From Geosiphon pyriformis uo1 (lineage: Eukaryota; Fungi; Glomeromycota), in assembly GCA_016748015.1 (NCBI GenBank), contig JAAOMT010000682.1, positions 41,951 through 105,950 on the forward strand: 64,000 nt of DNA. Direction: 5' to 3'. Below are positions 3,971-56,798 of the stretch, piece by piece (the first letter of the stretch is position 1; each line of letters starts with the position of its first letter). Both the position numbers and the translations under genes were made by a program. Below the pieces are notes generated by a model. It worked only from the letters and a program-made list of their open reading frames with translations. It was not told the origin of the DNA and searched no databases.

Positions 3971-3980
3971 TCCCAAACCC

Positions 3981-5348: not shown

Positions 5349-5351
5349 ACA

Positions 5352-20051: not shown

Positions 20052-20457
20052 TTAATTTTTTTTTTAATATTGAGCTCCTGTAAAATTAGTTGTGTCTGTT
20101 AATAGAACTTCATTTGTGTAATGTTTAATGGTTATGTCAACTATGGTTTTTTGTAGATCTTTAAACTATTGATTAAGTCATTTGTTCTATGTTGTTGACT
20201 GTTATCTTTTTCAAAAATCCATCCAATAATATGTTTGAACAATGTTGGAAAGCAATATATAATCGACATGCTGCTTTGTAGTGTAGTGTTAGATTGCTCT
20301 TTTTTACAAATTTTTCTACTTGTTACATTGCTTCTTTGTTGAAAGTTTTCTGGTTGTAGCCTTTATATGGGGTTTTTAAGTTTAATTGTTCTCCAATTTT
20401 GTAAAACCAATATGTTGAAAGGAGTCTTTCTTTCCACTTCTGGGCATTGTTTAGTGT
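20052..20457 (-). pseudogene. 3' half of ORF3 (element D)
   Basis: KWKERLLSTYWFYKIGEQLNLK...YKAACRLYIAFQHCSNILLDG; close to A's ORF3. Confidence 0.8.
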
Positions 20458-23400: not shown

Positions 23401-25950
23401 TAAGCTAGAGCTCCTACATAATCCAGTCGAGCATTGCATTGGTTTTAGACAACCAGTTATTACTAATGAGAGCTTGGTACTAAATGGCTTTCATGACTAA
23501 AACCTTGATTGGTACAATAATACTATTAACTTCAATAGAAAATTGTTAATTTTGTCAATTGAAGTTTTGGTAGCTCTATTAGCAGTAATAATTTTGGTAC
23601 TGGCAGCATGATCAACTTGGCAACCTAATTGGTCTATGAGTTGTCATGTGATGATGCTGCCTGCTGTACTATTGTCTAGATCAGCTTGATGGCCTGCCCA
23701 TTAATCTTGGCATTAGTGTATATGGCAGTAATAAGTTTTGTATTAAGGGCAGTTTTATTAAAAAAAGGGGTTTTAGTTGGTTTCTTAATTTTGAAGGAAA
23801 AAATGGCTGCTAACAATTTGTTGTTGGTAATGGTAGCTGAAGATATGTTGTTGTTAATCATTTGCTTCAAGAAGATTTCCAGATTGTTGGTTAAGGTGTT
23901 TTCTGAAGTAACCAAGAAACTCAGATAGTTCTGAAAACTCAGATTTTGGTTGTACCTATTTTCCAAATTTCTGGAACATAATTCTAAAGTGTGTTTGGAT
24001 AAACTGGAGATTGGTTGATAAAAAACTATTGTTAATCTCCAGTTTTGCTAAACAATTCTCAGTCTTTGGTTTTTGGGTAATGTTTGGGTTGAATTTTGTG
24101 ATGGAATTTGAATTTGTTGAGGTTGATATATCACTTGTGGCTGCAGTTGGTAGATAACTGGTGCTAGGGTTTGATACATTGGGGTTTAGTAAATTGGTTG
24201 CTGTACTACTTGAATGTAATGTAGTTAATAATAATCTTGATTTGGATAGTGGTTTGAAGTTTGAAATCTGTGATTGGGGTTTTAATATTAATTTTCTGAC
24301 TGTGGTTGATTGTAATATGCCCTGTAGTTAGCTCTAAGATAATTTTGTTTACCATAATTGTAAAAAATACATGTCTTCTGTTGCCATAGTTAATTGACTG
24401 ATAATGGTAGACATGTCTGATTTTAAGACTAACTAGAGTTTTCTGAGTTGTTGTAATGTTGTGAAGGTTGATAAATAAACTGATTGTTATTAGCTAAGTA
24501 CCCTTCAATTTTCTGATTAATGAAATCACTGAATTGTTTCAGCTTAGAATCCCATTTAGATGACTCATTTATTACTAGATTTACAGCTTGGACATAATTG
24601 GTTTTAAGTTCAGCAGCTTCAAAATCTCTGACATTTGTGACTACAGCTTGGAAATCTGTCAGGTGTAGTGGACATACATGTTGGAGTATGCTACTGTACA
24701 GGCCATGAATAAATTGGTTCAAGATTTGTGGTACTGTAAAATAATCAGCTTGTATTGTCTAAATTTGGCATAGGTTTCTATAAAAGTGTTCCAAGTAAGT
24801 AGTAACTGCTTTGGCATTTCTTTGTTTAATAGTGGTAAAGGTATTGGCCAAGCAATTGATGCTGTTATTGTTGCTAAAATATCTTAGAAACTTAAGCTTA
24901 AATGTGTTAAAATCTTGGGCTTTGTTTACTAAGCTTTAGTATCATGAATTGGCAGTATTCTGAAAAAAATATAGAATGGCTTGTAGGGCTCTGTCATTAT
25001 TTCATCTATTGGCTGTGATGGTTTTTTCTACATCATTTAGCCACACTTGTACATTATCTTTCTCACCAGTAAATTTTTCTATTTTTGCAATTGGAGCATA
25101 GGCCATAGATGCAAAGGGTTGCTGCTGTAATGGCAATTGTTAAAGTAGTTGTTGTGGTTGCTGCTAAGGTTGTATGGGTTGTTGTAGTGGTTTGGCAATT
25201 GAGTCAATGGATGGTTGATTAATTAATTAATATTATCAGGTTTGGGATTGTTCTAAGTTTGAATATTCAGAGTTTTAATTTCTGGGTTTTCTACAATTGA
25301 GTTTTAATAGTTGAATTTTTGATTCTTGTCTTCCTTTTCTTCTGATTCAGTTACTTTTCAAGGATTAGCTATTCCAAAATCTGGTTGGAGTAATGGTAAT
25401 TGAAATCCTGATGGCATAGTTAATTACAATTTAAATTTTTCAAAGTATTTGCCATACATATCTAATAAGTCAGCTTTTAATTGTTTGCTTTGAAATAAGA
25501 TTCAAGCTAGTGGTGTTTTCATGAATGATAATATGAATCCTGATGATATATTAATGATACTTTCTGAGATGTGGTAATAGGATGGATGTGTTGATGAATT
25601 GACTCTTTGTTTCTTCCAAGTGAGTACTTGTATTTCTTTAAGTATTATTGGTGGTGTTTGCAATCTTCCTTTGTCTTTGTTTGTGTAGATGATTAGGTAT
25701 CTTTGTTGAGTGTGGATTTCAATTTCTTTATTGATTTCCATGAGGATTGCTAAAAAATTATGATTTATTGGTAGGCTGGTATTTTGAATTAATTCATTGT
25801 AAAAATTTTTTCTAGCTGAGTCAGTTTCTATTAGTACTTCCAGCAAATATGAAATTCTCTTGTTGACATAAAAGTTGAAGGCTGATTTTGCTAATAGGTA
25901 ATTGTTAGTTAATCCCAAGTATTAATAGTAGTGTTGAAATAAGAATTATA
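20458..25950 (-). pseudogene. Element D gag-protease-Cys-rich-dUTPase-RT
   Basis: MAYAPIAK, WLNDVEK, ILNQFIHGL (gag); IKLIxDNSTAG (PR); CVDC, CQHC..CNKC; dUTPase ~21830-22230 (HNTDTKFDL, GGIIDTEY, KIAQAIF, RGINGF); RT YLDNT. Confidence 0.9.
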
Positions 25951-25969
25951 CCTTACAGGGAGTACCAAA

Positions 25970-26851
25970 TGTTACAAGTAATTATTTGAATAGTTGCAGT
26001 AAATAACAAATCTGTAACTTGGTGTTCAATTGATATAAAATGATAGTAATCTAAAGGTTTTTGTGTTCTGAAAATTTTGATTGAGTCCTTTGTATAATAA
26101 ACAAAGATTCTCATGTTATTTTATTTGTAGCTTCCCAGAATTGCAATTCCATTAATTTTTTTCTCAGCTTGGTGGCCAGCAATTCTTTGGTAAGCAATCT
26201 ATAATTTTTACGTGTTTTATCCACTCACAGGGGTTTTTTGCCAGACAATTTTTGATGTTAATAACTCAGTACTTAATCCTTAAAAAGTTTAATAAACCAT
26301 CAACAAGATACAAAAATAAAAAAAAGATAAAATAAAAACAATTAAGCCAAGGCAATACAAGTTAGTATCCTGTCAATAGTCATAATCAAGAACTATTGTT
26401 TCTGTGTAGTTTAAGTATTAATTACTATCAACATTTAGAGTTGATAGTGAGTAATTAGATTTGAAATACTGAATAAGTATATTTATTGATATTTGGAATG
26501 ATATGGTTTCTAACTAAGAAATAATAACTAATAAATTTCTGTTTTTTTGCTTCTAATGCTACTGCTATATATACATATTTTCTAGTTTTACAGAATTGCT
26601 TTAAATCATCTGTTCTTGCTAACTATTACTTTATTTTCTTACATTATAACTAATTATCTTATGTTATAGCATGTTATCTGATGTTATTATATGTTATTCT
26701 GTGTTATTTTGTGTTATAACACATTATTTTATATTATAATGCATTATCCAATGTTATTGTGCATTATTCTGTGTCTTTTTATGTTTTGTCATGTTTTTTT
26801 TGGTCACATTTTTTTTTTTTTTTTTGATAGGCTTTCTTTTTTCAAGTAATA
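25970..26851 (-). repeat. 5' LTR of element D
   Basis: Direct repeat of 19192-20051, adjacent to the PBS. Confidence 0.92.
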
Positions 26852-35817: not shown

Positions 35818-35954
35818 TATTGTCTTGTCTGGTCTAAGTGGCTAGCTACATGTAAAAAGTGCATGAATCACATTTAGTTTGAGCCACTTAGTTTGGTTCT
35901 ATGTACTAGATAGTGGTTGGGCTTCACTTGTTAAACACAATAATAATAAAAAAA

Positions 35955-35978
35955 TTATATATATTATATATATATATA
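35955..35978. repeat. (TA)n microsatellite between the two LINE tails
   Basis: TTATATATATTATATATATATATA. Confidence 0.8.
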
Positions 35979-36108
35979 TTTTTTTATGCATTTTATGAAT
36001 AAAGCCCAACTGCTATCTAGTATATAGAACCAAACTAAGTAGAACAAACTAAATGCAGTTTATGCACTGGCTACATGTGGCCAACCACTCAGGCTAGACA
36101 AAGCAACA

Positions 36109-37363: not shown

Positions 37364-38178
37364 TGTTACCAGACAAAATTAGAGATATTGTTTAGCATGA
37401 AATTACCCTTATAATTCTTATCATTAGTTAGCATATATTATTGTCTCAAATTATCACTTATTACATTAGCAAAATATTCGAAATTATCATTTAATTAATA
37501 ACCCAATTTGTACATAACACAAATATAACCTAATTGTGATGATCAATCATACAATACTCCGAACTATATAACATTCAAAAAGTTTGCCAAAATTTGTAGA
37601 AATTCGCCGAAATAATTGATAGTTCACCGAAATATCTAATAGTTTGCAGAAATAACTTGTAGTTTGCCAAAATGTATCTCTAGTTCAGCGAAATTGTAAA
37701 AAATAGCAAAGTTTAAGTTCATAGAATAGTGTTACGACAAGTTGTATAAAAAAAAAGCTTCTCTTTTTGAAAAAATGTATCTTACTTCAGATTGAACAAT
37801 TAGAATTATTCTTTACACACAAAAACAAAATAAATATCAAATAATTTGAAAAGCCAAATTCTTAATTATTTCCCTTGAAATTAACCAATTCCTATTAACA
37901 GTTTGAAATTGACTAGCTACCAATTTCAGTAAACTGTTAAAGCACTTTCAGGCCTGGATCCAAAACGACTTCCATAAAACATTTTTACTTTTCTTTTACA
38001 TTTCTTTTATTTTCCTTCTTTTCTTATTATAAATCATTTGGGTAGCCTACAGACGAGAATTCCTGTAGAAAATTTGACTTTTACAGTAAAGTAACTACAC
38101 ATTTTAGTAAGCTTTTAGATAAGCATTTCCTAGAAAAGAGTTAACATTTACTATAATGTAACTATACAAAGTAACTGG
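37364..38178 (+). repeat. 5' LTR of G, first segment (continues at 47793-47956)
   Basis: Direct repeat of the start of 55860-56798. Confidence 0.92.
37581..37695 (+). promoter_or_regulatory. U3 array of six ~20-bp units with core AGTTCGCCGAAAT, upstream of a TATA-like box
   Basis: Units at 37581, 37601, 37621, 37641, 37661, 37682; TATAAAA at ~37745. Confidence 0.6.
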
Positions 38179-38876
38179 TGTTACCAGAGGTTTTTGGTCT
38201 CTTTTCTTAAATGTTGTCGATACTTATTTGCTGTGAATTCACGTTTTCTGGATGTGGTTGAACCTCTAGTAACTGAATTTATCTTCAAATTATCTCCTAT
38301 AATTTGAACTGCTGGGCTTATAAGTGGAATGGCCAATTCCATGCCAGTTACTTTATGTAGTTACATTGTAGTAAACATCAACTCTTTCTCAGGAATTGCT
38401 CGTCTGGAAGCTCACTAAAATGTATAGTTATTTTGCTGTGAAAGTCAACTCTTCTACAAAAATCTTGTTTGTAGGCTACCCTAATGATTATAGTAAGAAA
38501 ATAAAAGAAAAAAAATAAAAAGATGTAAAAGAAATAAAATTCTGTCAAGGGAAACGTTTTCAATCCAGGTCTAGAGTCACTAACAGATTATTGAAATTGG
38601 TAGCTAATCAATTTCAAAACTTTAGTTGGGTTTTGAGAATTTTCCAAGTGCAATAATTAAAAAATTTGGTTTTTCGAATTATTTGATATTTATTTCTTTT
38701 TGTGTGTGTAAGAATGGTTCTAAGTGATAAATCTAAAGTAAGATACATTTTCTCGAAGAGAGAAGCTCTTCTTTTTATACAACTTGTCGTAACACTATTC
38801 TATGAACTTGAACTTTGCTATTTTCTACAATTTCACTGAACTAAAGATACATTTTGGCAAACTACAAGTTATTTCT
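38179..38876 (-). repeat. 3' LTR of F (runs into the assembly gap)
   Basis: About 97% identical by eye to 46808-47505. Confidence 0.93.
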
Positions 38877-39064
38877 NNNNNNNNNNNNNNNNNNNNNNNN
38901 NNNNNNNNNNNNNNNNNNNNNNNNNNNNNNNNNNNNNNNNNNNNNNNNNNNNNNNNNNNNNNNNNNNNNNNNNNNNNNNNNNNNNNNNNNNNNNNNNNNN
39001 NNNNNNNNNNNNNNNNNNNNNNNNNNNNNNNNNNNNNNNNNNNNNNNNNNNNNNNNNNNNNNNN
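38877..39064. other. Assembly gap (188 N)
   Basis: Run of n. Confidence 1.
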
Positions 39065-39596
39065 TTGGGTTTTGTAGTACGTTTTCACAGGTGTGGAATA
39101 GGTCATAAAGTCTAAGAGCAGCTCTGAGCCTGTAGCGACTGTTTGTTGATCCAGCTGTTGTCTTGAATTCATTGTGGAGTTGTTTCTGAATAGCTTTTTT
39201 TGTGAGGTTTGCTGTTGTAAGTTCCAGTTTCCATTCGTAGAGTGTTTTTCCAATGTGAAAATATCTATAGATTGGAGGATATTTAGTGTTTTCCTTATTG
39301 AGACACAGTTGAAGTCTTTGTTGAATTGTAGCATTTGGTGGAATACTAATCAGAATGAGCATTAGATTTTCTCTTAAAGCAAGCTTTAAAAGTTCTGGCA
39401 GGTGAATTCCAGTATAACTTCTTGTGTTCTTTTTATACGGGTAATATTTTCATGAATTTGGGGCTAAATTTGTAACTACTTCTGTTTGGGTATAATTAAT
39501 GTAGTTTTCAGTAACAGTAATGGATAATTCAGGTATTGTTTTTAAAGCTAACATTAGTTTTTGGGATAATTGTTGAATGTTTTGAGGAATAGTCAT
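39065..39596 (-). pseudogene. ORF3 of element F (3' end in the gap)
   Basis: ATG at 39596: MTIPQNIQQLSQKLMLAL...IYRYFHIGKTL...LRAALRLYDLFHTCENVLQNP; one internal TGA. Confidence 0.78.
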
Positions 39597-39717
39597 TATA
39601 AGCAATTTGAAATAAAAAAAAATTATTTTTGGTGCATGGGTTTTTATGTTATTTTTGTTTTGTTTTTGTGAGATTGTTTCTAAATTATAAGAAAATAACT
39701 ATAATAATTAATTTAAA

Positions 39718-41103
39718 TTAAGTGTTCAAGTTGGGAGGCTGTTTAATGACAACTATTGATTCTAAATTTTGGGGAATATCTTCGGGATTGATTAAAGGGA
39801 AATGTGTACCAATTTATGGAATTAATGATTCAGGATTGTTTCTGGAATTATAGTGTTTCAAACAATCTCCATGTGCAACTTTTGCTAGAATTTTGTCATC
39901 AAGTCTTAGCTTGTATGATCCGTTGCCTAAAACTTTATGGATAAAAAATGGTCCATTCCATTTATTTTCAAATTTCTCACTCCATTGTTTTTCAGCTTTA
40001 GTTCTGTGTAAGAGAACTTTGTTTCCGATTTTAAATTTATTGGTGACTGGAGGCAATTTGTCATCATGCCATTCTTTTTGTCGAGCTTGGGAGTTTTCAA
40101 TATGGGTGGCTGCTATTCGTTGTTTTCCTTCCAACATGCTAAGCAGAGTGTAGACTCTTTGTTGAAGTGTTTCCTGAAAATTGTTTTTATTGATTGGTTG
40201 TGCTAGGTATGTTTCCACTGTGAACTTAATTGGTAGCATTGCTGTCCTTCTGTAAGTTAAATCAAATGGTGTGTGTTTTGTGGTATCTTGTTTTAGTGTT
40301 CTATATGCTAGTAACACTGATAGAATAAAGATATTCCATTTTTGCTCAAAATCGGTTGAGACTTTGGCTAATGACTCACACAATGTTCTGTTAAAATGTT
40401 CCACAAGTCCATTTGTTTGTGGATGGTAGGGCGAAGACAGAGGTCTTTTGACATTGAATTGTTCACAAATTTTTTGTATTAGGTTGTTCACAAAATGTGT
40501 TTCCTGGTAAGATAAAAGTTCAATTAGACATCCGTGTCTACAAATGATGTTTTCGTAGATGAAATTTGCTACTGATTTCGCATCTGCTCATTGAATGGCT
40601 CTGACTTCAGGCCATTTAGTAAGATAGTCTACAGCTACTGCAATATAACAGTTTTCTTGAGTGGTGATAGATAATGGTCCAACTAAATTGATACCAACTC
40701 GGTTAAAGAGTTGTTCAACTTTGATTGGATTTAATGGTTTAGTAGGGTGTGTTCCTCTTCTTCTTTGACAACTATCACAAGATTCGACATATTTGTGAAT
40801 GTCTTTCCTCATTCGAGGCCAAAAGTAGTATTCTAGTGTTCTTTGAGTGGTGCTATCTTTTCCGAAGTGTGCTGATGAAGGATTTGAGTGCATGTTGTAT
40901 AATATGATCTCTTTTTCCTGTTCTTGTATTAGTCTGAGTGGTTTGTCTGGGTTTTTGAAATTTCGATGATAAATAATGTTGTTGTGTAGAAAATATTGTT
41001 TGGCTTGTTGTTGTAGTTGATGTTTTTTATCTGGAGACCAATCTGTTGAGATTGTTAATGTTTCCAAATATTGTTTGAGATTGTTGTAGTTTTCTAAATT
41101 CAT
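39718..41103 (-). pseudogene. Integrase ORF of element F
   Basis: MHSNPSSAHF...CDSCQR (HHCC), GINLVGPL, HPQTNGLVEHFN, KWNGPFFIHKVLGNGSYKL. Confidence 0.93.
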
Positions 41104-41152
41104 TGTTTGTTGGCTTTTTTGGTTGGTTAAGTTGAGTGTTGGTTTTTGTTTT

Positions 41153-44100
41153 CTAATCTTGTCTCATTCTGGAGAGACAGTCAACATTAGTGTGGAGTTT
41201 TTTTGGTTTGTGATGTACTATGTATCGATAATTTGCTAGAAATCCTGTCTATCAGGTTTGTTTTGCATTCAGCTAAGTATTTTTGTTCTGAAGCCATTTG
41301 AGTCCAATATTATCAGTGATAATATCGAATTCTTTAGGCCTGAGATAAAGATTAAAGTGGTGTAGGGCCCAAATTATGGCTGCTGTTTCTAGTTCTGTGG
41401 CAGGGTAGTTTTTCTCAGCTGGTTTTAATATTCTGCTAGCATAAGCAATTACTCGCTCATTTCCATTGTCATTTAGTTGTGATAAGATGGCACCAAAGGC
41501 AGTATATGAAGCATCTGTAGCTAGTCGAAATCAGTTGCTGAAATCTGGGTAGGCAAGGATTGGGGCTGTTGTCAGTTTTTCTTTGAGAATTTCAAAAGCT
41601 TTTTGGTGTTTGGTAGTCTATTTGTATTCCACATTTTTGGTGGTGAGCTGGTTGAAGAGTTTTGCAATTTCTGAGAATCCTTTGATAAACTTCCGATAGT
41701 AGAATGCTAATCCTATGAATCCTCTTAGTTCTGTAGTATTTCGTAGAACTTTGAAGTTCTTAACAGCACTGATTTTTCCTGGATCTGGTTTGACTCCTTC
41801 TTCACTAACTATGTGACCAAGAAAGGCCAAAGTTGTTTTTCCAAAATGGCATTTTTCAATATTTAGTTTTAATCCTGCTCTACGTAATTGTTGAAAAACT
41901 TCTCACAGGTGAATTAAATGAAGTCCGAAAGATGGGGAATAAACATCAATGTCATCAAGATAAACAACTACTGATTTCCAAAGGAGTCCAGCATATACAA
42001 TATTTATGAGTCTTTGGAATGTTGTTGGCACATTGCATAATCCAAAGGATATTATATTGAATTCGTAGTTTTCTCCTTGTGTTGTAAATGCTGTTTTGGG
42101 ATGGTTCTTGGGATCTATGGCAACTTGCCAGTATCTGCTTTCTAGGTTTAATGTTGAAAAGTATTTAGATTTTCCAAGGGCATCTAACATGTCATTGATT
42201 CGCGGAAGAGGGTAAGCATCTCCAATGGTAACACTGTTGAGTTGTCAATAATCAACACAAAATTGTATCTTTCCATTCTTTTTTTTAACTAGGACCACTG
42301 GTAAGGCCCATGGACTCATTGATGGTTGAATAAGCCCATTGTTAAGCATCTGTTGTACTTCTTCTCGGATAAATTGGTGGCTTTCTGGAGCAACTCGATA
42401 TGCTTGTTGTCTTTTTGGTTTGGCATCTCCTGTATAAATTTGGTATTGGACTAAATCGGTTCTTCCTAAGTCATTGTTGTTTTCAGCAAAGATATCAGCA
42501 AATTCTGCAATTAGTTCTTTGAGCTGGGTCTGTTGTTATGGTTCAAGTTGTCCCATGTTGATTCGAGATAGTTTTTCCATAACAACATGGTAGTTTTTAG
42601 AGCTGAGATTTAGATTGATTTTTAGTAGTGAATGTCCAATAATTTCAGAAAAATTGGGGACTGTTTGGGGTAATTCTTGTTGAAATATGTTACTGTGAAT
42701 AATTCCAATTTCTAAGTTATTTAATAAAACTATGAGATAATTGTTGGGATTGTAAAAAGTAACTCGGACTTTCTTTGTTCCTTTTGGAATATAAATGTTT
42801 GGGATCAAGATATTATGTTTCAAGCAGATTTGTTTGTTTGATTCAAAAATTTGTTGTGTGGTTGTTGGCTTTTCACAAATGTAAATTTCAGAATGTTCTC
42901 TAAAGGGTGAAATGGTAATTGGTTGTGGAAGTTGTAAAATCTGGTGAAATTCTTTCTGTTCATTGAGAGCTATGTTTACTGAAACTGTGAAACGTCCAGT
43001 TGAACCAAAACCTTGTGTTCCTCTTTCACTTTTTTCCAACTGTTCTCTTTGATTAATTAATTGTAAACCCGAAATGTTGATTAAGAGTAGATAGATAGCT
43101 TGAGCAATTTTTTCAGCATATCCAATTTTGAAAAGTTTATCAGTTTCATTTTGTAACATGACTGTGATGTCTCCTGTGTATCCAGCATTGATGATTCCTC
43201 CTGTAATATTGATTCCTTTGATTGCCAAGGATGATCAAGAAGCAATTTGAACCATTGCTCCTGGTGGGATTTCGAAGGCAATTTTGAAGTTGATTTTTGT
43301 AAGAAATTTGGGTTTGAGAGTAAGAATATCTTTTCCTGAATATCTTAGATCATATCTAGCATTGATCTTGTGGGCTTTTTCTGGTTTTATTCCTTGTCCA
43401 TTGTTGTTGAAATATTTGAGTTATAAAGCAGGCTGATTTTTGATGAGATAGATGGGTGTTGTCTCAATTTTTTCTGTTGCTTCAAGTTCTCCGAATTCAA
43501 TTTTGTATTCATCATTTTTGCTGGGCAAGGGAATGCTAAGAGCATAACATTCAGGACACCACTATTCATTACAAGGCATAATACATTCTTCACATAGCCT
43601 AATGTTCATTTGCTCTAATCGTTGAATTTGAGTTTCTTGGGTTGGGTAGGTGTGACTTGCAATTTGGTGGTAGACTTCTACTTTGTCTTCGTAATTGAAT
43701 CCAGCTAATTCCATGGTGTATTCAATGTATTCTGTTTCCTTCATTTGGCAAACATCTTTTTTGGTAGCTCCATTAATTAATGCCATTGCTAGGTCAAAAA
43801 TCATTTCGGCATCATGGGGGTAGTGATAAAGTTTGTTGAGAGCACTATTGTATGCTGCATTAAAGGGTGTTCCTCTTTTTACTTTTTCTGAAATTGATAA
43901 AGCATATTGGCAGGTCTGATCACAGACTCCTTCTTTCATGGCTACATCAATCCAATTGCATTCTTCTGGTAGCATATCTCCACAAGTCAAACAAGAGGTG
44001 TTGTCACATTTTCCGCTCCTTTTTATTAGATGGCCCCATCGTTCTCTGTGACAAGTCTTGCAGTAATAACAAGTATGATTTTCATATTCTTCTTTGGGTG

Positions 44101-46787
44101 AAATGCAGGCTCCCATTGACGATAGTTTCTTGTGGCAGTCTTTACATTTAAGGGGAATATAGGGGCGTTGTTTCTTTGGTTCGGGTTTTGAATAAGGTAT
44201 ATTCCATCCAGAGGTTTCAGATTCAGAGTGCGGGGTAAAATGTTCTTGTTCTGTTTCATCGGCCCAGTTGGACGTTGATTCAAGAGCCATGAATGTTTCA
44301 ATGAGGGGATTTTCCTCTTCCGGTTCAAATTCAAAAGCCGGGGCTTTCTCAGAGCATTTGTTGAATGTACCACAAATGGCAGATATCCGGGCGTGTTGTC
44401 CTTGGTAGGAGATTGTTAACTCTTGTGTTTCCCAATTCAGATTAGCATTGGCTTTTTGAAGCCAATCATTTCCAATAAAAGCTTGGTATTGGGGTGTGTC
44501 CATTACAAGAACTTTGACTGGAATGGTGATTTCATCAAGAGTGAACGGAAAATTGTCAATTTTTCCTATTGGGGTCTTTTTCATACCATCAGCAGTGACA
44601 ATTACTGTTTGAGCTGGTCAGTTAACATTTCTTTTTAACTGTTGCATTAACTGGTAGGTGATAATGCTTCCGGTGGATCTATTGTTTAAGATCAAGCGAA
44701 TTGTCTTTCTTTTGACTTTGGCTTCAGTGTACATGGCCGTGATTGCTTTTTGTTCATTGGCGGCTGCATTGCTAAGCAGAAATGGTGACTTATTTGCTTC
44801 GAACTCAAAAAGGAATATATCTGAAAGGTTAGCATTTTTAGCAATTCTGGCTGATGGAATTGTGGTGGAAGTATAGGAAGGGTTTTGTTGTTGTGCTGCA
44901 GCTCTACCTTCCAAGAGTGCAGTATGGTGAAAATTCTGTTCTTCTGGCATTGTTAAATAACTGGGTTGAGTGTGGTAGTGGTTGGGTCTTGGTTGAGTGA
45001 TATTTCGGGGAACCAATTGGTTGTTCGAACTGATTCTATTGTTGTTTGCTTGGTATTAGTTTTGTGGTGTGAATTGATTTTGTGTAAGCAGTCTTCAAGC
45101 AGGTACTTGATAATGTTGTGTGAGTGGTTGTTGGTATTGCTGTGGGATTGGCTGTGGGACAGGCTGATAATAGTTATTTTGGTATTGGGGTCTTGGTGAA
45201 TAGTAAGCTAGTGGTGGCGGTTAATAATAAGATTGCTGTGGTGAAGAGTAACGTTGATTACTCCTATTTTGTTGGTCTCATTGTAGCTTTCTGCAATCTC
45301 TTTTCCAGTGGCCAGGGATTCTACAGTAATGGCAATTCTGAGGCTGGTTATTGGAAAGTGGTGCAAAGTTATTTTGATTTCGTTTTTGGGGTGGTTGATA
45401 TCTTTGGGGTTGCTGTTGTTGTTAATTGGTAAAATAGTTTTCAACCTTCTTTGTGAGTTGGTCAATTTTTTCCTCAGCTGCTGAGCTGGTTTCTCCAATT
45501 GCCAAATTTACAAGTTTTGTGCGGTTGGCCTCTTCCATAGCCATTTCATATCTTTTTGCATGCTGTATGGCAGAGTTTAAATCTTCTGGCGCATGTGGGC
45601 AAACTTTTTTAATTAGTTTATCTTTTAGACCAGCGATAAATTAATCCAAGATTTGAGCATCGGAATAATAATCATTTGTTTCGAGTTGGTGAATTTGTCT
45701 GAGAAGTTTGTTGAATTTCCTAATATAAGTTATAACGGATTCGGAGGGTTCTTGTTTGATATTTCAAAAACAATTGTGAAGAGTGATGGAGGTGTTATTG
45801 TTGGTGAACTGTTCAAGAAAGGCTGCTTTGAAAGCATTCCAATTATTGAATGGGGTGGCCAAGTTTTCAAACCATTTTCCTGCTGTTCCTTTGAGAAAGT
45901 AGGGAATTGTTCTTAACATTCTGGCAGCATTCCATCCATTTGCATCTCCAGCTTTAGTAACTTGGTTGAGCCATTCTTAGGGACTGGTCTCAATATTTTC
46001 TCTATTGAATTTAGGGATTTTTGTGATGTATGTTGTTATTTTGTCTTTTTTCTTTTCACTGTCTATTGATTCTTCTTCAGTTATTTCAGAGTTGTTTTCT
46101 TTATTTGCTGCTGTCTCAGAGTGTTCACTTTGATTTTCAGCTAGAAAATCAAGGAGATTGGAACTAGTTTGAAGGGGTTCTTGTTGTCTGGTGGGACCTC
46201 TGAGTAATGTAAAATCTTCTGGTCTTGCAAATCGATTTAAGGGTGAATTAGGTGTTTGTGCTTGTGCAAGTAAAGCTAGAAAAGGTGTAATAGTAAGTAG
46301 AAGTTTTGAACTGGTTCCTTGTTCAGGTGTTTGTAAATGTTTGAATAATATTTTGGGAGTATTGGGTGTTGTGTGAACAGGTCAGTTATCTCTTTGTCTT
46401 TTGTTGCTACTTGTTTCAGGTTCAGATTCGAGTTCAAAGACAAATTGTGCGTTTGCAAGATATTTTTCTTCACAGAATCAAATGATATTATAATCAAGTT
46501 CTTCAAAATAAGTAGTGCAAGCTTTAGCACTAATGTTTTCTGATTCAGTGTTGGAATAGTGTAGTATGTTCTCAAGAAGATTTCTTTTAACTATTGTAAT
46601 ATTATAGTTTTCAAAAAGGTAGTCATTGATTCAATTTTCGATGTATTGAAAAAGTGTTTTCTTGAAAGCTATGATTCCATCATGTATTTCAAATCATTGT
46701 TTGCAGTGTGTGTAAATCAATTGATAGTACTCTAAGGTTGTGATGTCTGAGGCAGTCGTCACTTTGAATTTGTTGTTGCTGTGTTAT
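41153..46787 (-). pseudogene. Element F gag-PR-Cys-rich-dUTPase-RT-RNase H
   Basis: CHYCRIPGHWKRDC knuckle; LILNNRSTG; 340-aa ORF with CxxC pairs; GGIINAGYTG, KIAQAI, RGTQGFGSTG; VVYLDD; LATDAS..ELE..ITDN; ends NVDCLSRMRQD*. Confidence 0.93.
42990..43380 (-). pseudogene. dUTPase domain of element F
   Basis: Five motifs: NARYDL, xSSLA, GGIINAGYTGDI, EKIAQAI, ERGTQGFGSTG. Confidence 0.93.
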
Positions 46788-46807
46788 TTCTATGGGAGAG
46801 CACCAAA

Positions 46808-47788
46808 TGTTACCGGAGGTTTTTGGTCTCTTTTCTTAAATGTTGTCAATGCTTGTTTGCTGTGAATTCACGTTTTCTGGATGTGGTTGAACCTCCAGTA
46901 ACTGAATTTATCTTCAAATTATCTCTTATAATTTGAACTGCTGGGCTTATAAGTGGAATGGCCAATTCCATGCCAGTTACTTTATGTAGTTACGTTGTAG
47001 TAAACGTCAACTCTTTCCCAGGAATTGCTCGTCTGGAAGCTCACTAAAATGTATAGTTACTTTGCTGTGAAAGTCAACTCTTCTACAGAAATCTTGTCTG
47101 TAGGCTACCCTAATGATTATAGTAAGAAAATAAAAGAAAAAAAATAAAAAGATGTAAAAGAAATAAAATTCTGTCAAGAGAAACGTTTTCAATCCAGGCC
47201 TGGAGTCACTAACAGATTATTGAAATTGGTAGCTAATCAATTTCAAAACTTTAGTTGGGTTTTGAGAATTTTCCAAGTGCAATAATTAAAAAATTTGGTT
47301 TTTCGAATTATTTGATATTTATTTCTTTTTGTGTGTGTAAGAATGGTTCTAAGTGATAAATCTAAAGTAAGATACATTTTCTCGAAGAGAGAAGCTCTTC
47401 TTTTTATACAACTTGTCATAACACTATTCTATGAACTTGAACTTTGCTATTTTCTACAATTTCGCTGAACTAAAGATACATTTCGGTGAATTACAAGTTA
47501 TTTCTGTGAACTATTAGATATTTCGGTGAACTATCAATTATTTTGGCAAATTTCTATAAATTTTGGCAAACTTTTGAATGTTACATAGTTTGGGGTATTG
47601 CATAATTGATCATTGTAATTAGGTTACATTTGTGTTGTGTACAATTTGGGTTATTAATTAAATGATAATTTTGGACATTTTTGCTAATATAATAAGTAAT
47701 AATTTGAAATGATAATATATGCTAATTAATAATAGGAATTATAAGATAGTTTTATGCTCAATGATATCTCTAATTTTGTCTGGTAACA
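46808..47788 (-). repeat. 5' LTR of F (981 bp)
   Basis: TGTTACC...GGTAACA perfect 7-bp terminal inverted repeat. Confidence 0.94.
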
Positions 47789-47958
47789 CTGGCACAGAAT
47801 TGGCCATTCCACTTATAAGCCCAGCAGTTCAAATTATAGGAGATAATTTGAAGATAAATTCAGTTACTAGAGGTTCAATCACATCCAGGAAATGTGAATT
47901 CACAGCAAACAGGCATCAACAACATTAAGAAAAGAGACCAAAAACCTCCAGTAGCATT

Positions 47959-47976
47959 TGGTGCTTTCCCATGAAA
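47959..47976 (+). promoter_or_regulatory. Primer binding site of G
   Basis: TGGTGCTTTCCC, 2 nt after the LTR end; same arrangement in C, D, F. Confidence 0.75.
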
Positions 47977-47989
47977 ATAACACAGTAAC

Positions 47990-50900
47990 AACAACTTCAA
48001 AAGTGGCAACTCAAACAGATTCAAGAACTCTAGAGTATTATCAGTCAATCTACACCCACTGCAAGCAGAGATTTAACATCCCAGATGGAATTGAAACATT
48101 CAAGAAAACACTTTACCAGTACATTGAAAATTGCATCAACAATTATTTTCTTGGAGACTACAACATTTCAAAAGTTAGACACAACTTATATGAAAGCTTA
48201 ATACATCACTCTCATCTAAACACGCAGGATTTTAACAGTCAAACACTTGAAACATACTTCCAAGAACTCAACTTCAATATTATTCAGTATTGTGAAGAAA
48301 ATTACCCAGTAGAACAGAAATTTTCTCTTAGTTTTGAATCAGAAACCGAAGAAGGAAAAGGAAAAAGAAAACAAAAACTCAGAACTACTCCCAATACACC
48401 TAAAACCACTGCCAAACATTTACAAACTCCAGAACAAGGAACCAGCTTTAAATTATCACTCTCAATCATATCATTTCTAGCTTCACTTGCTCAACCGCAA
48501 ACACCAAGCTCATTACTTATTCAGTTTTCAAAAATAGATGATTTTCAGTCATTCAAAAGCTCTATTTAACAACAGAAACCAATATTAACCAGCACAAATC
48601 TTATTGACTACTTAGCAGAAAATCAAAGTAAAGAGACCGAATTAAAACAAGAAACAGAAGACTTAGAAAATAAAGAAAAAATGGTCTCCATATATATTGC
48701 AAAGATCCCTGAGTTCACAGGAGAAGACAGTGAAACCAGTCCTCAAGAATGGCTTAACAAAGTCTCAAAAGCAAGAGATACAAATGGTTGAAATACTGCC
48801 AGAATATTAAAAGCAATTCTATATTTCTTACAAGGAATGGCTGGCAAATGGTTTGAAAACTTGGAAGCCTCACCAGAAGACTGGAAAGCATTCAAAACTG
48901 CTTTCCTAGAACAGTTCACTGACAATAACACTTCCATTACCCTTCGAAATCGGTTCTGAAATATCAAGCAAGAACCAAGTGAATTAGTTATAACCTATCT
49001 TGAGAGATTCAACAAACTGCTTAGAAGGATTTGCCAATTAGAAACAAATAAATACTACTCTAATGCACAAATTTTGGATCAATTCATTGCTGGATTAAAA
49101 GACAAACTTATTAAGAAAGTTCGCCCACATGCACCAGAAGATTTAGCCACTGCTATTCAATAGGCAAAAAACTATGAAATGGCCATAGAAGAAGCCAACC
49201 GTACCAAACTTGTTAATCTGGCTATTGGAGAAACCAGCTTAGCAGCTGAAAAAAAGATTGACCAATTAACCAAGAAAGTTGAAAACTACTTCACCAACCA
49301 ACAGCAACAACAGCAGCCACAGCAATCACAACAACCACAAAAATACTAACCCTCACAAAGATGAAATCAAAATAACTTTGCACCACTTTCTAATAACCAG
49401 CCTCAGAATTGCCATTACTATGGAATCCCTGGCCACTGGAAAAGAGATTGCAGAAAGCTACAATGAGACCAACAAAATAGGAGTAATCAACGTTACTCTC
49501 TACTACAGCAATCTTATTATCAACCACTACTACTAGCTTACTATCCACCAAGACCCCAATACCAAAGTAACTATTATCAGCCCACTCCACAGCCAATCCA
49601 ACAGCAATACCAACAACCACCCACACAACATTATCAAGTGCCTGCTTGAAGATTGATTCCGCAAAATCAGTTCACACCACAAAACCGATACCAAGTAAAC
49701 AATAATAGAATTAATTTGAACAACCAATTGGTTCCCCGAAATTTAGCTCAACCAAGACCCAACCACTATCATACTCAACTTAGTTATTTTATGATGCCAG
49801 AAGAACAGGATTTTTGCCATACTGTACTCTCAGAAGGTAGAGCTGTAGCACAACAACAAAACCCTTTCTATACTCCTACCACAATCCCACCAGCCAGAAT
49901 TGCTAAAAATGCCAACCTTTCAGATATATTCCCTTTCGAATTTGAAGCAAATGAATTACCATTCTTGCTTAGCAATGCAGTGGCTAATGAGCAAAAAGCC
50001 ATCACTGCAATGTACACAAAAGCTGAAGTAGAAGGAAAGCCAATTCGCTTGATTCTAAACAGTGAATCTGCCAGAAGTATCATCACCTATCAATTGATGC
50101 AACAGCTAAAGAGAAATGTTGACTGACTAGCTCAGACAATCATTGTCACTGCTGATGGCATGAAAAAGACTCCAGTAGGAAAAATTGACAACTTCTCATT
50201 CATAATTGATGAAATCACCATTCCAGTCAAAGTTCTGGTCATGGATGCTCCCCAATACCAAGCTCTTGTCAAAAACAATTGGCTCCAAAAAGCCAATGCT
50301 AATCTGAATTGGGAGACACAAGAGTTAACAATCTTCTACCAAGGATGACATGCTTGAGTACCTGCTACTTGTGGTACATTTAATAAATGCTCCAAAAAAG
50401 CCCCGGCTTTTGAATTCGAACTGGAAGAAGAAAAACCCATCATTGAAACATTTATGGCACTTGAATCAATCTCTAATTGGGCTGATGAAACTGAAAAACA
50501 GTATTTTTCAACAAACAATTCTCTTGAAACAAAAAAATCAGTAACACTCAGATGGAATGTCCCCTATTCAAAACCAGAACCATGAAAACAACACCCTTAC
50601 ATTCCATTTAAATGCAAAGATTGCCACAAAAAACTCTCATCAATAGGAGCTTGTATTTCACCTGAGGAAGAATACAGAAACCATATCTGTTACTATTGCA
50701 AATCCTGCCACTGAGAATGATAGGGACACCTAGTCAAAAAAAGTGGAAAATAGGACAGAATGCCCTGTTTAACTTGTGGAGAACAATTACCTAATGAATG
50801 CAACTGGATTGATGTTGCATTCAGAGAAGGAGTCTGTGATCAAACATGTTAATATGCTTTTTTAATCTCAGAAAAAGTAACAAGAGAAACCTTTTTTGAT

Positions 50901-53606
50901 GCTGCTTACAACAGTGTCCTCAACAAACTGTACCATTACCCTCATGATGCCGAAATGATTTTTGATCTAACAATGGCTTTAATCAATAGAGCCACTCAAG
51001 AAAATGTTTGTCAAATAAAAGAATCAGAATACATTGTATACACTTTTGAAATCACTGGATACAACTATGAAGATGAAGTAGAAGTATATTACCAAATTGC
51101 CAGTCACACTTACCCGACTAAAGAAGCTCAAGCTCAATGGCTAGAGCAAATAAACATTAAATTGTGTAAAGAATGCATAATGCCTTGTGATGAGCAATGG
51201 TGCCCTGAATGCTATGCTCTTAGCATTCCCCTGCCCAGTGAAAATAATGAAAACAAAATTGAATTTGGAGAACCTAAAGCAACAAAAAAAATTGAAGCAA
51301 CACTCATCTATCTTATCAAAAATCAGCCTGCCTTACAACTCAAATACTTCAACAACAATAGATAAGAAATAAAAACCGAAAAAGCACATGAAATTGATGC
51401 TGAATATGACCTAAGATATCCAAACAAGAATACTCTTGTTCTCAAACCCAAATCTCTCACAAAAATCAATCTCAAAATTGCCCTTGAAATTCCACCAGGA
51501 GCAATGGTTCAAATCACCTCCCAGTCCTCTCTGACAAGCAAAGAAATCAATGTCAAAGGAAGAATAATCAATACTAGATATACTGGTGATATAACAGTAA
51601 TACTCTAAAATGAAACCAATAAACCTTTCAAAATTGAACATGCTAAAAAAATTGCTCAAGCTATCTATTTACTCTTAATCAATATTTTGGGTTTACAGTT
51701 AGTCAATCAAAGAGAACAATTGGGAAAAAGCGAAAGAAAAACACAAAGTTTTGGTTCAACTGGATGATTCACAGTTCCAGTAAACATAGCTCTCAATAAA
51801 CAGAAAAAATCTCACCAGTTTCTACAACTTCCACAACCAATTACCATTTCACTTTTTGGAGAACATCATGAAGTTTACACATGTGAAAACCTCATGACTA
51901 CTCAACAAATCTTTGAATCCAATGAACAAATTTGCTTAGAACACAACATTTCAATCCCAAACATCTATGTTCCAAGAGGAGCAAAGAAAGTCCAAGTTAC
52001 TTTTTACAATCTCAACTATCAACCCGTTATTTTATTGAACAAGTTAGAAATAGGAGTCATTCACAGCAACATCTTTCAGCAGGAACAACCCCAAACAGTT
52101 TTAAATTTCTCAGAAATCATCGAACACTCTTTACCAAAAATCAGCCCCAGACCAAGCTTTGAAAACTACCATGTTGTTATGAAAAAACTATCTCGAATCA
52201 ACATGGAACAACTAGAACCATACCAACAAAAACAGCTTAAAAAGCTAATAGCAGAATTTGCCAATATCTTTGCTAAAAACAACAATGACCTAGGAAAAAC
52301 TGATTTAGTACAACACCAAATTTATATTGGAGATGCCAAACCAAGATGACAACAAGCCTACCAAGTTGCTCTAGAAAGTCACCAATTTATCCGAAATGAA
52401 GTACAATGGATGCTTAACAATGGGCTTATTCAGCCATCAATAAGTCCATGGGCCTCACCTGTGGTCCTAGTTAAAAAGAAAAATGGAAAGATATAATTTT
52501 GTGTTGATTATTGACAACTCAACAGTGTCACTATTGGAGATGTCTACCCTCTTCCCTGAATTGATGACATGCTGGATGCTCTTGGGAAGTCCAAATACTT
52601 TTCGACATTAGATTTAGAGAGTGAATACTGGCAAGTTGTCATGGATTCCAAAAATTGCCCCAAAACAGTATTCACTACTCAAAGAGAAAATTACGAGTTC
52701 AACATAATGCCTTTTGGATTATGCAATGCACCAGCAACATTCCAAAGACTCATGGATGTTGTTTACAAAGGCTTTCTTTGGAAATCAGTAGTTGTCTATC
52801 TTGATGATACTGATGTTTATTCACTATCTTTTGAATTACACTTAAAATATCTGCACGAAGTCTTTCAACAATTATAAAAAACAGGATTGAAACTGAACAT
52901 TAAAAAATGCTACTTTGGAAAAACAAGTTTGGCCTTTCTTGGTCACATTGTTAGTAAAGATAAAATCAAACCTGATCCAAGAAAAATAAGCACTGTTAAA
53001 AATTTCAAAACTCCTCAAAATACTACAGAACTAAAAAAATTCATTGGATTAGCATCCTACTATTGGAAATTTATCAAAAAATTCTTAGAAATTGCAAAAC
53101 CCCTCAACCAGCTTACCACCAAAAACGTTGAATACAAATAGACTATTGAACACCAAAAAGCTTTTGAAATTCTCAAGAAAAAACTGACAACAGCTCCAAT
53201 TCTTGCCTACTCAGACTTCAGTAGCCAATTTCAATTAGCAACAGATGCTCCATACACTATCTTTGGTGCCATCTTGTCACAATTAAATGACAATGGAAAT
53301 AAGTGAGTAATTGTTTATGCCAGCAGAACATTAAAACCAGCTGAAAAAAATTATCCTGCCACTGAATTGGAAACAACAGCTGTAATTTGGGCCCTACATC
53401 ATTTCAACCTTTATCTCTGGCCAAAGGAATTTGATATTATCACTGATAATATTGGACTCAAATGGCTTCAGAACAAAAACACTCAGCTGAATATCAAACA
53501 AACCCAATGGACAGAATTTTTAGCCAACTACTAATACATTGTACACTACAAACCAGAAAAACTCCATACCAACATTGATTGTCTCTCCAGAATGAGACAA
53601 AATTAG
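47990..53606 (+). pseudogene. Element G gag-PR-Cys-rich-dUTPase-RT-RNase H (single frame with point stops)
   Basis: ORF-track pieces at 47958, 49653, 50160, 50955, 51894, 52569 and 52887 are all in one frame; knuckle ~49410-49451; dUTPase ~51380-51770; YLDD ~52797; ends NIDCLSRMRQN*. Confidence 0.93.
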
Positions 53607-53654
53607 AAAACACAAATCAACACTCAACTTAACCAACCTAACAACCAACAAACA

Positions 53655-55037
53655 ATGAATTCAAAAGACTACAACAATCTCAAACAATATTTAAAGACAT
53701 TAACAATCTCAACAGATTGGTCTTCAAATGAAAACCATCGATTACAACAAGCCAGACAATATTTCCTACACAACAACATTATTTATTATCAAAATTTCAA
53801 AAACTCAGACAAACCACTCAGATTAATACAAGAACACAAAAAAGAGACTATATTATACAACATGCACTCAGATCTTTCATCAGCACACTTCAAAAAAGAC
53901 AGCACCACTCAAAGAACACTAGAATACTATTTTTGGCTCTAAATGAAAAGAGACATATATCAATATGTTGAATCTTGTGATAATTGTCAAAGAAGAGGAG
54001 GAACATGCCCTATTGAACTTTTAAATCCAATCAAAGTTGGACAACCTTTTGACCAAATTGGTATCAATTTAGTCAGACTGCTACCTATTACCATGTAAGG
54101 AAACCGATACATAGCAGTAGCAATAGATTATCTTACCAAATGGCCCAAAGCCAGAGCTATTCAACAAGCAAATGCAAAATCAGTAGCAAATTTTATCTAT
54201 GAAGACATTATTTGTAGACATAAATGCTCAATTGAACTTCTATCCAATCAGGGAACACATTTTGTGAATAACCTGACACAAAAAATTTGCAAACAATTTA
54301 ATGTCAAAAGACTTTTATCTTTGCCCTATCATCCACAGACAAATGGATTAGTGGAATGTTTCAACAGAATATTGTGTGAATCACTAGCCAAAGTCTCAAC
54401 AGATTTTGAGCAGAAATAGAATATCTTTATTCCATCAGTGTTACTAGCATATAGAACACTAAAACAAAATACAACGAAACACACACCATTTGACCTTACT
54501 TATGGAAGAACAGCAAAACTACCAATTGAATTCACAGTAGAAACATATCTAGTACAACCAATCACAAAAGAAAACTTACAAGAAACACTTCAGCAAAAAG
54601 CTTATACTCTTCTTAGTATTTTAGAAGAAAAAAGACATATAGCAGCCACCCACATTGAAAATTCACAAGCCCAACAAAAAGAGAGACATGACAACAAACT
54701 GCCACCAGTCACCAATGAATTTAAAATTGGAAATAAAGTTCTCTTATACAGAACTAAAGCTGAAAAACAATGGAGTAGAAAATTTGAAAATAAATGGGAT
54801 GAACTATTTTTTATTTATGAAGTTCTAGACAACAGATCATACAAGCTAAGACTTGATGACAAAATCCTAGTAAAAGTTGCACATGAAGATTATTTGAAAC
54901 ACTATAATTTCAAAAACAATCCTGAACCATTAATTCTACAAGTTGGTACACATTCTCCATTAATCAATCCTGAAGATATTTTCCGAAATTTAGAACCAAT
55001 AGTTGTCATTGAACAACCTCCTAACTCGAACACTTAA
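53655..55037 (+). pseudogene. Integrase ORF of element G
   Basis: ATG at 53655; MHSDLSSAHF, CDNCQR, DYLTKWP, SNQGTHF, HPQTNGLVE. Confidence 0.92.
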
Positions 55038-55171
55038 TTTAAATTTACTATAGTTATTCCCTTATAAATTAAAAATTGATTTTACAAAAACAAAACAAAA
55101 ACAAAAATAACATAAGTTCACATACCAAAAATAATTTCAATCTATTTTTTTCTCTTACTCAAGTTTTTATA

Positions 55172-55891
55172 ATAACTATCCCTCAAAATATTTAACAAAT
55201 ATCTTAAAAATTAATGCTAACTTTAAAGACAATACCTGAATTATCTATCACTATTACAGAAAAACATATTAATTATACCCAAACAGAAATAGTTGCCAAT
55301 TTAGCCCCAAATTCACGAAATTATCACTCCTACAAAAAGAACACAAAAAATTATTCTGGAATTCATCTACCAGAACTTTTGAAGCTTGCTTTAAGAGAAA
55401 ATTTAATGTTCACCCTTATTAGTATTTCACCAAATGCTACTATTCAACAAAAACTTTAATTGTGTCTTAATAAAGAAAACCACAACTATACTTCAATATA
55501 TAGATATTTCTACATTGGAAAAACACTTCACAAATGAAAATGGGAGCTTACAGCAGCAAACCTTACAAAAGAAGCTATTCAGAAACAACTCCACAATGAA
55601 TTCAAGACAACAGCTGGACTTATAAATAGTCACTATAAACTAAGAGCTGCTTTTAGACTTTATGACCTATTTTATACTTATGAAAATGTCCTACAAAACC
55701 CAATTTTACAACCACTGAAGATCCAATACATTGGAAAACTCACAGAACTGAAATTTCAACAATTTTCAGACCAAATTTCTTCAGTAATTTTGGATTACTA
55801 TTTGGAATGTGCAGACAGTACTTGGACTTCAATGGAGCTCAGTCTTGAGGAGGAGGTTATGTTACCAGATGAAATTAGAGATATTGTTTAA
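55172..55891 (+). pseudogene. ORF3 of element G (~239 codons), overlapping the PPT and the start of the 3' LTR
   Basis: Start decayed to ATA; colinear with F ORF3; ends ...SLEEEVMLPDEIRDIV* inside the LTR. Confidence 0.78.
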
Positions 55892-56798
55892 CATAAAATT
55901 ACTCTTATAATTCTTATTATTAGTTAGCATATATTATTGTCTCAAATTATCACTTATTACATTAGCAAAATATCCGAAATTATCATTTAATTAATAACCC
56001 AATTAGTATATAACACAAATGTAATCTAATTGTGATGATCAATTATGCAATACCCCGAACTATGTAACATTCAAAAAGTTTGCCGAAATTTGTAGAAATT
56101 TGCCAAAATAACTTGTAGTTTGCCAAAATGTATCTCTAGTTCAGTAAAATTGTAGAAAATAGCAAAGTTCAAGTTCATAGAATAGTGTTATGACAAGTTG
56201 TATAAAAGAAGAGCTTCTCTTTTCGAGAAAATGTATCTTACTTCAGATTGAACAATTAGAATCATTCTTTATACACAAAAACAAAATAAATATCAAATAA
56301 TTTGAAAAGCCAAATTCTTAATTATTTCTCTTAAAATTAACCAATTCCTACTAACAATTTGAAATTGACTAGCTACCAATTTCAGTAAACTGTTAAAGCA
56401 CTTCCAGGTCTGGATCTGAAACAACTTCCATAAAACATTTTTACTTTTCTTTTATATTTCTTTTATTTTCCTTCTTTTCTTATTATAAATCATTTAGGTA
56501 GCTTACAGATAAGAATTCCTGTAGAAGAGTTGACTTTCACAGTAAAGTAACTACACATTTTAGTGAGCTTTCAGATAAGCATTTCCTGGAAAAGAGTTGA
56601 CATTTATTACAATGTAACTATACAAAGTAACTGGCATGGAATTGGTCATTCCACTTATAAACCCAGCAGTTCAAATTATAGAAGATAATTTGAAGATAAA
56701 TTCAGTTACTGAAGATTCAACCACATCCAGGAAACGTGAATTCACAGCAAACAGACATCAACAACATTAAGAAAAGAGACCAAAAACCTCCAGTAACA
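55860..56798 (+). repeat. 3' LTR of G (939 bp)
   Basis: TGTTACC...CAGTAACA after PPT 55847-55859. Confidence 0.94.

Follow-up and report, generated by a model that had tools for sequence, protein, structure and literature searches.

A Ty3/gypsy retrotransposon lineage of Glomeromycotina with integrase encoded in a reading frame of its own

Integrase behind its own start codon

We analysed 64,000 nt of the genome of Geosiphon pyriformis uo1 (GCA_016748015.1, contig JAAOMT010000682.1, positions 41,951 to 105,950 of the forward strand; hereafter the window, whose own coordinates are used below) and found in it several copies of a Ty3/gypsy long terminal repeat (LTR) retrotransposon in which the integrase (IN) has its own open reading frame (ORF), followed by a conserved third frame, ORF3. 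Self-comparison showed the interval 37364-56798 to be element G on the plus strand, carrying a second element, F (38179-47788, minus strand), inside its 5′ LTR; three further copies, A, B and D, lie elsewhere in the window. The junction is preserved in four copies (A, B, F and G); in every one of them the stop of the pol frame lies five codons past the final D-x-L-S-R motif of RNase H (RH), and the ATG of IN is aligned at the same IN position. The intervening spacers measure 10, 62, 49 and 48 nt in A, B, F and G, respectively, and lead into frames 1, 2, 1 and 0; they are A/C-rich, none holds more than one G, and no further ATG occurs in them. The initial annotation had already proposed a separately encoded IN, and both this alignment and the 16 split relatives described below bear it out.

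These relatives came from a metagenome scan with the IN alignment, from which 80 of 534 confirmed stretches were kept. Both RH and IN matches were present at 27 of the 80 loci, 16 of them split, 9 fused and 2 ambiguous, with IN identities of 33-50%, 28-32% and 27%, respectively, the ambiguous pair being broken distant elements. The split junctions occupy all three frames (3, 5 and 8 loci), most of them stop-free, and their gaps span -11 to 727 nt. In five the start overlaps the stop (-1, -1, -4, -11 and -11, the two -11 loci being near-identical), with TAATG and ATGA as stop/start overlaps, and in one the stop and start are 5 nt apart. A start of the form M-[DENK]-x(2-4)-Y is found in 72 of the 76 full-length IN among the 120 matches listed from a protein search with an intact IN, of which seven are named, all from Rhizophagus. 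The start context has a purine at -3 in 29 of 34 cases and G at +4 in 25 of 34. A scan of viral contigs with IN found no relative.

In an IN tree, for which 58 of 71 rows were kept after near-duplicates and fragments had been dropped, one group (SH-aLRT 84) unites the window copies with eight split loci and the seven Rhizophagus proteins and contains no fused rows. In the tree of reverse transcriptases (RT), all five window copies form a single clade (support 100/97). Both trees compare the window copies with metagenome rows and Rhizophagus proteins only. The different frames, the variable gaps, the stop-free relatives and the conserved Met together make decay, readthrough or a fixed frameshift very unlikely; as judged from these comparisons, the split between RH and IN is genuine and IN is predicted to be a separate protein. 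The initial annotation had suggested an ancestral reconstruction from F and G, which is unnecessary because intact natural relatives answer the question.

Candidate routes to the integrase start codon

The reading that we favour, and to which we assign an even chance, is that IN would be made as a free protein by ribosomes that terminate behind RNase H and start again 10-62 nt further on; the route by which ribosomes reach the IN AUG is what we infer here. Genomic RNA would be translated through the gag-protease (PR)-RT-RH frame to its stop five codons after the RNase H motif, and ribosomes would reinitiate at the IN AUG, yielding free IN with no polyprotein cleavage. The free IN would be recruited in trans to the particle or the cDNA, likely via its conserved N-terminal aromatic (YPYY-like) motif. 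ORF3 would serve as a soluble accessory protein, likely nucleic-acid binding, the dUTPase encoded in the pol frame would keep uracil out of the cDNA and the Cys-rich domain beside it would bind zinc. The short, ATG-free spacers of the window copies and the stop/start overlaps in five relatives favour termination-reinitiation, and reinitiation after a long ORF is known from CHV1, HvV190S and SART1 (PMC10275272).

Several observations weigh against this reading. The spacers of relatives reach 156, 278 and 727 nt, other ATGs occur in 6 of 16, and ATG is not depleted in split-locus spacers (21 observed, 24.7 expected). Reinitiation of the TURBS (termination upstream ribosome-binding site) type drops beyond ~30 nt (PMC10275272), and three of the four spacers in the window exceed that length. 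We rejected a hairpin ahead of the RH stop, as 34-228 of 500 synonymous shuffles were equally stable. Reinitiation does not fit the whole clade. As for the lineage itself, the 1058 proteins found at E ≤ 1e-30 with an intact IN query came from a search whose length window left out fused forms, so that these could not appear. Three split loci fall outside the supported IN group, and the RT tree leaves the split group unresolved, a single clade being neither demonstrated nor rejected (p-AU 0.145, approximately unbiased test).

Alternatively, IN, and probably ORF3 too, could be translated from subgenomic mRNAs of their own, either spliced from the LTR in the manner of env or started at an internal promoter. 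This possibility, which we think unlikely although it is the best placed of the alternatives, agrees with the long spacers that hold extra ATGs in some relatives, with the good IN start-codon context, with the T-rich tracts immediately before ORF3 in F and G, and with the spliced extra ORFs reported in plant elements (PMC7264820). However, no YAG lies within 30 nt of the IN ATG in 11 of the 16 split loci, and at five loci stop and start overlap exactly, an arrangement that requires no splicing and resembles translational coupling.

Internal ribosome entry, in which ribosomes would be recruited directly to the IN AUG by a structured RNA or, in the window copies, by the A-rich spacer, appears less probable still. 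It draws on a strongly covarying hairpin motif of ~38 nt located directly upstream of the IN ATG in 16 loci (L005:5198-5229, L008, L009, L010, L011, L012, L013, L014, L015, L016, L018, L023, L024, L026, L007 and L030), consisting of an outer stem, an 11-nt purine-rich bulge, a 6-bp stem and an 8-nt loop. Eight of 12 pairs changed on both sides and 0 of 500 shuffles scored as high, counts that are inflated by related rows. A model of the motif gave 16 matches in 53 sources, two of the loci being outside the model-building set and none belonging to the window copies. The motif is also missing from overlap-type loci, and it could instead be a packaging or protein-binding signal; it occurs in one subclade, where it suggests internal entry or a binding site. 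Rfam returned just two chance-level matches, away from the spacer motif, and a likeness of the motif to known ribozymes was considered but found no support.

That IN is fused to RT-RH by readthrough or frameshifting, or that the stop is mere decay of an ordinary pol, is highly improbable and already largely refuted: G has IN and pol in the same frame, and the TAG can come from the observed C>T/G>A decay, but three frames occur both among the window copies and among the 16 relatives, most of them stop-free, spacer length varies and the Met is conserved.

ORF3, the Cys domain and the dUTPase

ORF3 homologues come after IN in the relatives as well, and between F and G the frame is under selection, with a ratio of nonsynonymous to synonymous substitutions (dN/dS) of 0.21. 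The ORF3 of A and B is just 18-19% identical to that of G. A first profile built from 10 relatives found the window ORF3 weakly (E 0.001 for A, 0.38 for F and 0.69 for G). The profile of the relatives' ORF3 led to 514 clusters at 50% identity, with Rhizophagus and Gigaspora named among the 10 examined, and among the 120 ORF3 profile matches listed, 94 are Geosiphon proteins and 2 are from Cetraspora. In a shuffle test, 11 of 17 Geosiphon or window ORF3 proteins were beaten by at most 2 of 1700 shuffles, and the ORF3 of copy B failed. The window proteins are linked to the wider ORF3 family by weak homology (hhalign probability 30%, E 5e-4), a point against the favoured reading; weak as it is, the link is consistent.

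The fold predicted for an intact relative's ORF3 (148 aa) is all-helical, with eight helices (pLDDT, the model's per-residue confidence, 96.5). The model had no significant fold match in PDB or viral structure libraries (best Z 4.5), a PDB sequence search gave nothing better than E 0.3, no Pfam family was shared across 117 family members, and a protein atlas queried with the intact relative returned no usable match. No transmembrane segment was found, the maximal 19-residue hydropathy being 0.83-1.28 in nine proteins and reaching 1.6 in 1 of the 117 family members. Predicted to be all-helical and having neither a transmembrane segment nor a fold match, ORF3 does not look like env. The likeness to a complex retrovirus that had been read into these elements is not supported; the remaining domains match Ty3/gypsy Pfam models. 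The median isoelectric point of 8.7 and the conserved Arg residues are consistent with a protein that may bind nucleic acids.

An overlap of ORF3 with the LTR, claimed initially for the copies in general, is seen directly in G only, where the frame crosses the polypurine tract and continues for 10 codons within the LTR; F has a 188-N assembly gap at this place, and in A and D ORF3 ends just before the tract. Among aligned database copies, 11 of 18 end like G ORF3. In the relatives L008:2042, L009:1919, L010:2367 and L018:1983, ORF3 likewise crosses the polypurine tract, which codes for a Glu run, and in L005, L012 and L006 it stops before it. The L006 element has an additional coiled-coil ORF (L006:7458-8258) between IN and the ORF3 homologue, giving a four-ORF 3′ region, and its gag and pol occupy separate frames.

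As the initial annotation had stated, there are two extra pol modules, which A, B, D, F and G all carry: a Cys domain with 11 invariant Cys, located between PR and dUTPase, and the dUTPase itself, with F/G dN/dS values of 0.08 and 0.28, respectively. The dUTPase is predicted from sequence by a match to Pfam PF00692 above the cut-off, and the five conserved motifs of the family are readable across the copies. Neither module was matched in the 80 metagenome loci, including five near-complete split elements. In a protein search with the Cys-dUTPase region, 32 of 37 matches were labelled Geosiphon pyriformis, and the five from outside Geosiphon are weak and partial, all with a dUTPase domain. The two modules together were seen only in Geosiphon and are likely later additions of a Geosiphon sub-lineage. 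Of the architecture as a clade trait, the split IN and ORF3 hold clade-wide, whereas the Cys domain and dUTPase do not. A dUTPase between PR and RT has already been published for fungal gypsy elements (PMC2864245).

For the Cys domain, Pfam and PDB profile searches gave nothing credible, and a weak model (pLDDT 62.8) gave generic helical matches only (best Z 6.5); zinc binding is suggested by its CxxC pairs. Cys/His-rich extensions of another type follow RNase H in four relatives (L005:4356-5166, L012:3496-4441, L014:2419-3274 and L021:4944-6705), and short Cys stretches precede RT in L006 and L022; the clade seems to gain Cys-rich modules repeatedly.

Nested copies, neighbours and affinities

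The Ty3/gypsy LTR retrotransposons F and G are both dead. They have LTR ends of the form TGTTACCAG...GTAACA and 4-bp target duplications, CTGG for F and CTGT for G. The gag gene, which had been placed first in A, B, F and G, is in place in F and G; A runs off the window start and B gave no gag match. With stop codons translated as X, the long frames of F and G have ~1875 codons each, and Pfam places capsid, PR, dUTPase, RT and RH in this one frame and IN on a separate stretch.

Along the plus strand, the left part of the G 5′ LTR (37364..38178) begins TGTTACCAG after the left CTGT and is interrupted by F, which lies on the minus strand. F starts with the portion of its 3′ LTR outside the assembly gap (38179..38876; 3.0% from its 5′ LTR, all transitions). 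The gap of 188 N (38877..39064) conceals where F ORF3 ends and its 3′ LTR starts. It is followed by F ORF3 (39065..39596; ATG 39596, 1 internal stop, truncated by the gap), the F IN ORF with its own ATG (39718..41103; H2C2 finger, core and SH3-like GPF end, 2 internal stops) and the 49-nt spacer (41104..41152; A/C-rich, one G, no further ATG), across which IN is shifted to a different frame. F ORF1 (41153..46783) encodes an N-terminal extension, capsid, CCHC knuckle, PR, Cys domain, dUTPase, RT and RH in a single frame with 24 internal stops and a final TAG; within it lie the dUTPase (42995..43384; Pfam E 5e-17) and the Cys-rich domain of ~220 aa (43517..44173; no Pfam match for F). The primer-binding site (46792..46805; TGGTGCTCTCCC...) and the 5′ LTR of 981 bp (46808..47788) complete F.

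The plus strand resumes with the F target duplication (CTGG) and the right portion of the G 5′ LTR (47789..47956), the G primer-binding site (47959..47972) and G ORF1 (47970..53606), which has the same order as in F in a single frame, with 28 internal stops and a final TAG, and includes the Cys-rich domain (50586..51242; dN/dS 0.08) and the dUTPase (51381..51764; Pfam E 8e-16, dN/dS 0.28). After the 48-nt spacer (53607..53654; no G, no ATG) come the G IN ORF with its own ATG (53655..55037; 3 internal stops, dN/dS 0.26), ORF3 (55172..55891; 239 codons, 4 internal stops, dN/dS 0.21), which crosses the polypurine tract 10 codons into the LTR, and the 3′ LTR of 939 bp (55860..56798), which differs by 6.8% from the 5′ LTR and is followed by the right CTGT.

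The LTR pairs differ almost only by transitions, and the lower divergence in F (3.0% versus 6.8%) fits an F younger than G. Decay in general consists of transitions enriched at CpG; repeat-induced point mutation was rejected, as its dinucleotide signature is missing over 36001-58000 (TpA/ApT 0.59-0.99, (CpA+TpG)/(ApC+GpT) 1.15-1.67). For nine domains of ORF1, together with IN and ORF3, the F/G dN/dS is 0.08-0.28, with the N-terminal stretch saturated; by this measure the Cys domain, dUTPase, IN and ORF3 are under purifying selection.

Three further stretches were observed. A conserved ~240-codon N-terminal extension precedes the capsid (47970-48690, plus; 46060-46783 and 16053-16803, minus) with no in-frame ATG near the primer-binding site; the common F/G frame begins only at a GTG, and a start by a non-AUG codon or by splicing is possible. 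Between dUTPase and RT lie ~130 conserved codons (51765-52150, plus; 42600-42995, minus; dN/dS 0.19) with no Pfam match. A ~45-codon frame at the LTR 3′ end (56632-56770, plus), found at the same place in other F/G LTRs, gets spliced onto ORF1 by gene callers and could be an upstream ORF.

The other copies A, B and D are divergent subfamilies with 30-49% identity to G, and C is what remains of the 5′ part of an F/G-type element. Copy A (1..6351, plus), truncated by the window start, reads PR-Cys-dUTPase-RT-RH, stop, 10-nt spacer, IN (ATG 3981), ORF3 and 3′ LTR. Copy B (7074..14589, plus) reads PR-Cys-dUTPase (split by a solo LTR, 8600-9506)-RT-RH, stop at 11706, 62-nt spacer, IN (ATG 11771) and ORF3. 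Copy D (19192..26851, minus; duplication ATTG) was said to fit the scheme where preserved, and does: its gag-PR-Cys-dUTPase-RT is fused by a deletion to the 3′ half of ORF3.

A 4-bp duplication was found in 4 of 5 insertions checked (CTGG 38175-38178/47789-47792; CTGT 37360-37363/56799-56802; CTAA/CTGA 8596-8599/9507-9510; ATTG 19188-19191/26852-26855), and the solo LTR E (27041-28003) has no matching target duplication. Three duplications have a central TG, in one case in only one member of the pair, and these few sites would be compatible with a decayed central CG. Another repeated element forms an inverted pair, 65% identical (31149-34377 versus 56959-60190), and G inserted in the neighbourhood of this pair and of a 2.8-kb self-inverted region (34541-37360). 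LTR elements are reported to make up 41% of the G. pyriformis genome (PMC11952901).

With direct LTRs ending in TG...CA, a primer-binding site, a polypurine tract, a target duplication, capsid plus CCHC knuckle, the order PR-RT-RH-IN, an H2C2 finger and a GPY/F-type IN end, these elements share the features of non-chromovirus Ty3/gypsy elements (Metaviridae). They differ in the conserved ORF3 and in that IN is encoded outside the Pol polyprotein, for which reason we file them as a variant Ty3/gypsy lineage of Glomeromycotina and not as a retrovirus. No chromodomain was among the Pfam matches to E 0.5 (IN of F and G) or E 0.1 (IN of two intact relatives). Most fungal elements are reported to have one fused ORF, or gag plus pol (PMC2864245). 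The dUTPase-bearing fungal elements PosPlaTy3-5, Tmt1 and those of Phanerochaete also have dUTPase between PR and RT; unlike here, their hosts are ascomycetes or basidiomycetes, and the accessible descriptions mention neither a split IN nor a Cys domain (PMC2864245, PMC6431247).

Ginger1 DNA transposons, like the clade, have a free-standing gypsy-like integrase, and their 4-bp duplications, TGTNR ends and YPYY motif may be comparable to the 4-bp duplications, TGTTA ends and YPYY-like motif seen here (PMC2836005). In the relatives' IN the candidate motif precedes the zinc finger (Y/F 74, P 64, Y/F 70 and Y/F 74 of 76), and the window INs lack its Pro; it fits the text definition of YPYY, which is common to Ginger1 and some gypsy integrases (PMC2836005). 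Ginger1 duplications are CCGG/CCGT (PMC2836005), compared with CTGG, CTGT, CT[A/G]A and ATTG here, and Ginger1 has 40-270 bp terminal inverted repeats and no RT in place of LTRs and RT; OTU and Ulp1 domains gave no match here, unlike in Ginger1. CHV1, HvV190S and SART1 share a second ORF that begins at or near the first stop (PMC10275272), but these are RNA viruses or a non-LTR element, and the spacers here span -11 to 727 nt. A third ORF in sense orientation, placed after pol and ahead of the 3′ LTR, is also a feature of errantiviruses, complex retroviruses and plant elements with extra 3′ ORFs, whereas ORF3 here is predicted to be small, soluble and not env-like. In these last groups IN is not known to be encoded outside Pol.

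This distinct lineage, with its separate IN and conserved ORF3, had been suspected to be undescribed, and no gypsy element with an IN of its own turned up in the literature covered, although subscription journals, GyDB, Repbase or the supplements to PMC2864245 and PMC2836005 may hold a description; none appeared in the accessible parts of PMC3248453, PMC7264820, PMC6431247, 10.1101/2021.03.30.436303, 10.64898/2026.05.21.726589 and PMC12440569. New here are the distinction between clade-wide and Geosiphon-specific features, the ORF3 family with its model, and the spacer RNA motif. Taken at its widest, and tentatively, since we consider the full picture doubtful, the finding would be a widespread, undescribed tricistronic Ty3/gypsy branch in Glomeromycotina, with free IN made by reinitiation or through a new structured RNA element, ORF3 as an accessory protein of new fold, and a free, CpG-centred, YPYY-type IN as an extant intermediate that connects gypsy retrotransposons with Ginger1 DNA transposons.

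The IN of known LTR elements and retroviruses is carried into the particle within Pol, from which the protease releases it. A lineage with free IN would need other means to translate, dose and package it, which could be tested with intact relatives. It bears on whether Ginger1 derives from gypsy integrases, a scenario discussed in PMC2836005, and brings to light a conserved RNA motif that is new and an ORF3 family of large size. Many entries annotated in mycorrhizal fungi as 'hypothetical proteins' or as lone 'integrase core domain proteins' would also be explained as parts of one element.

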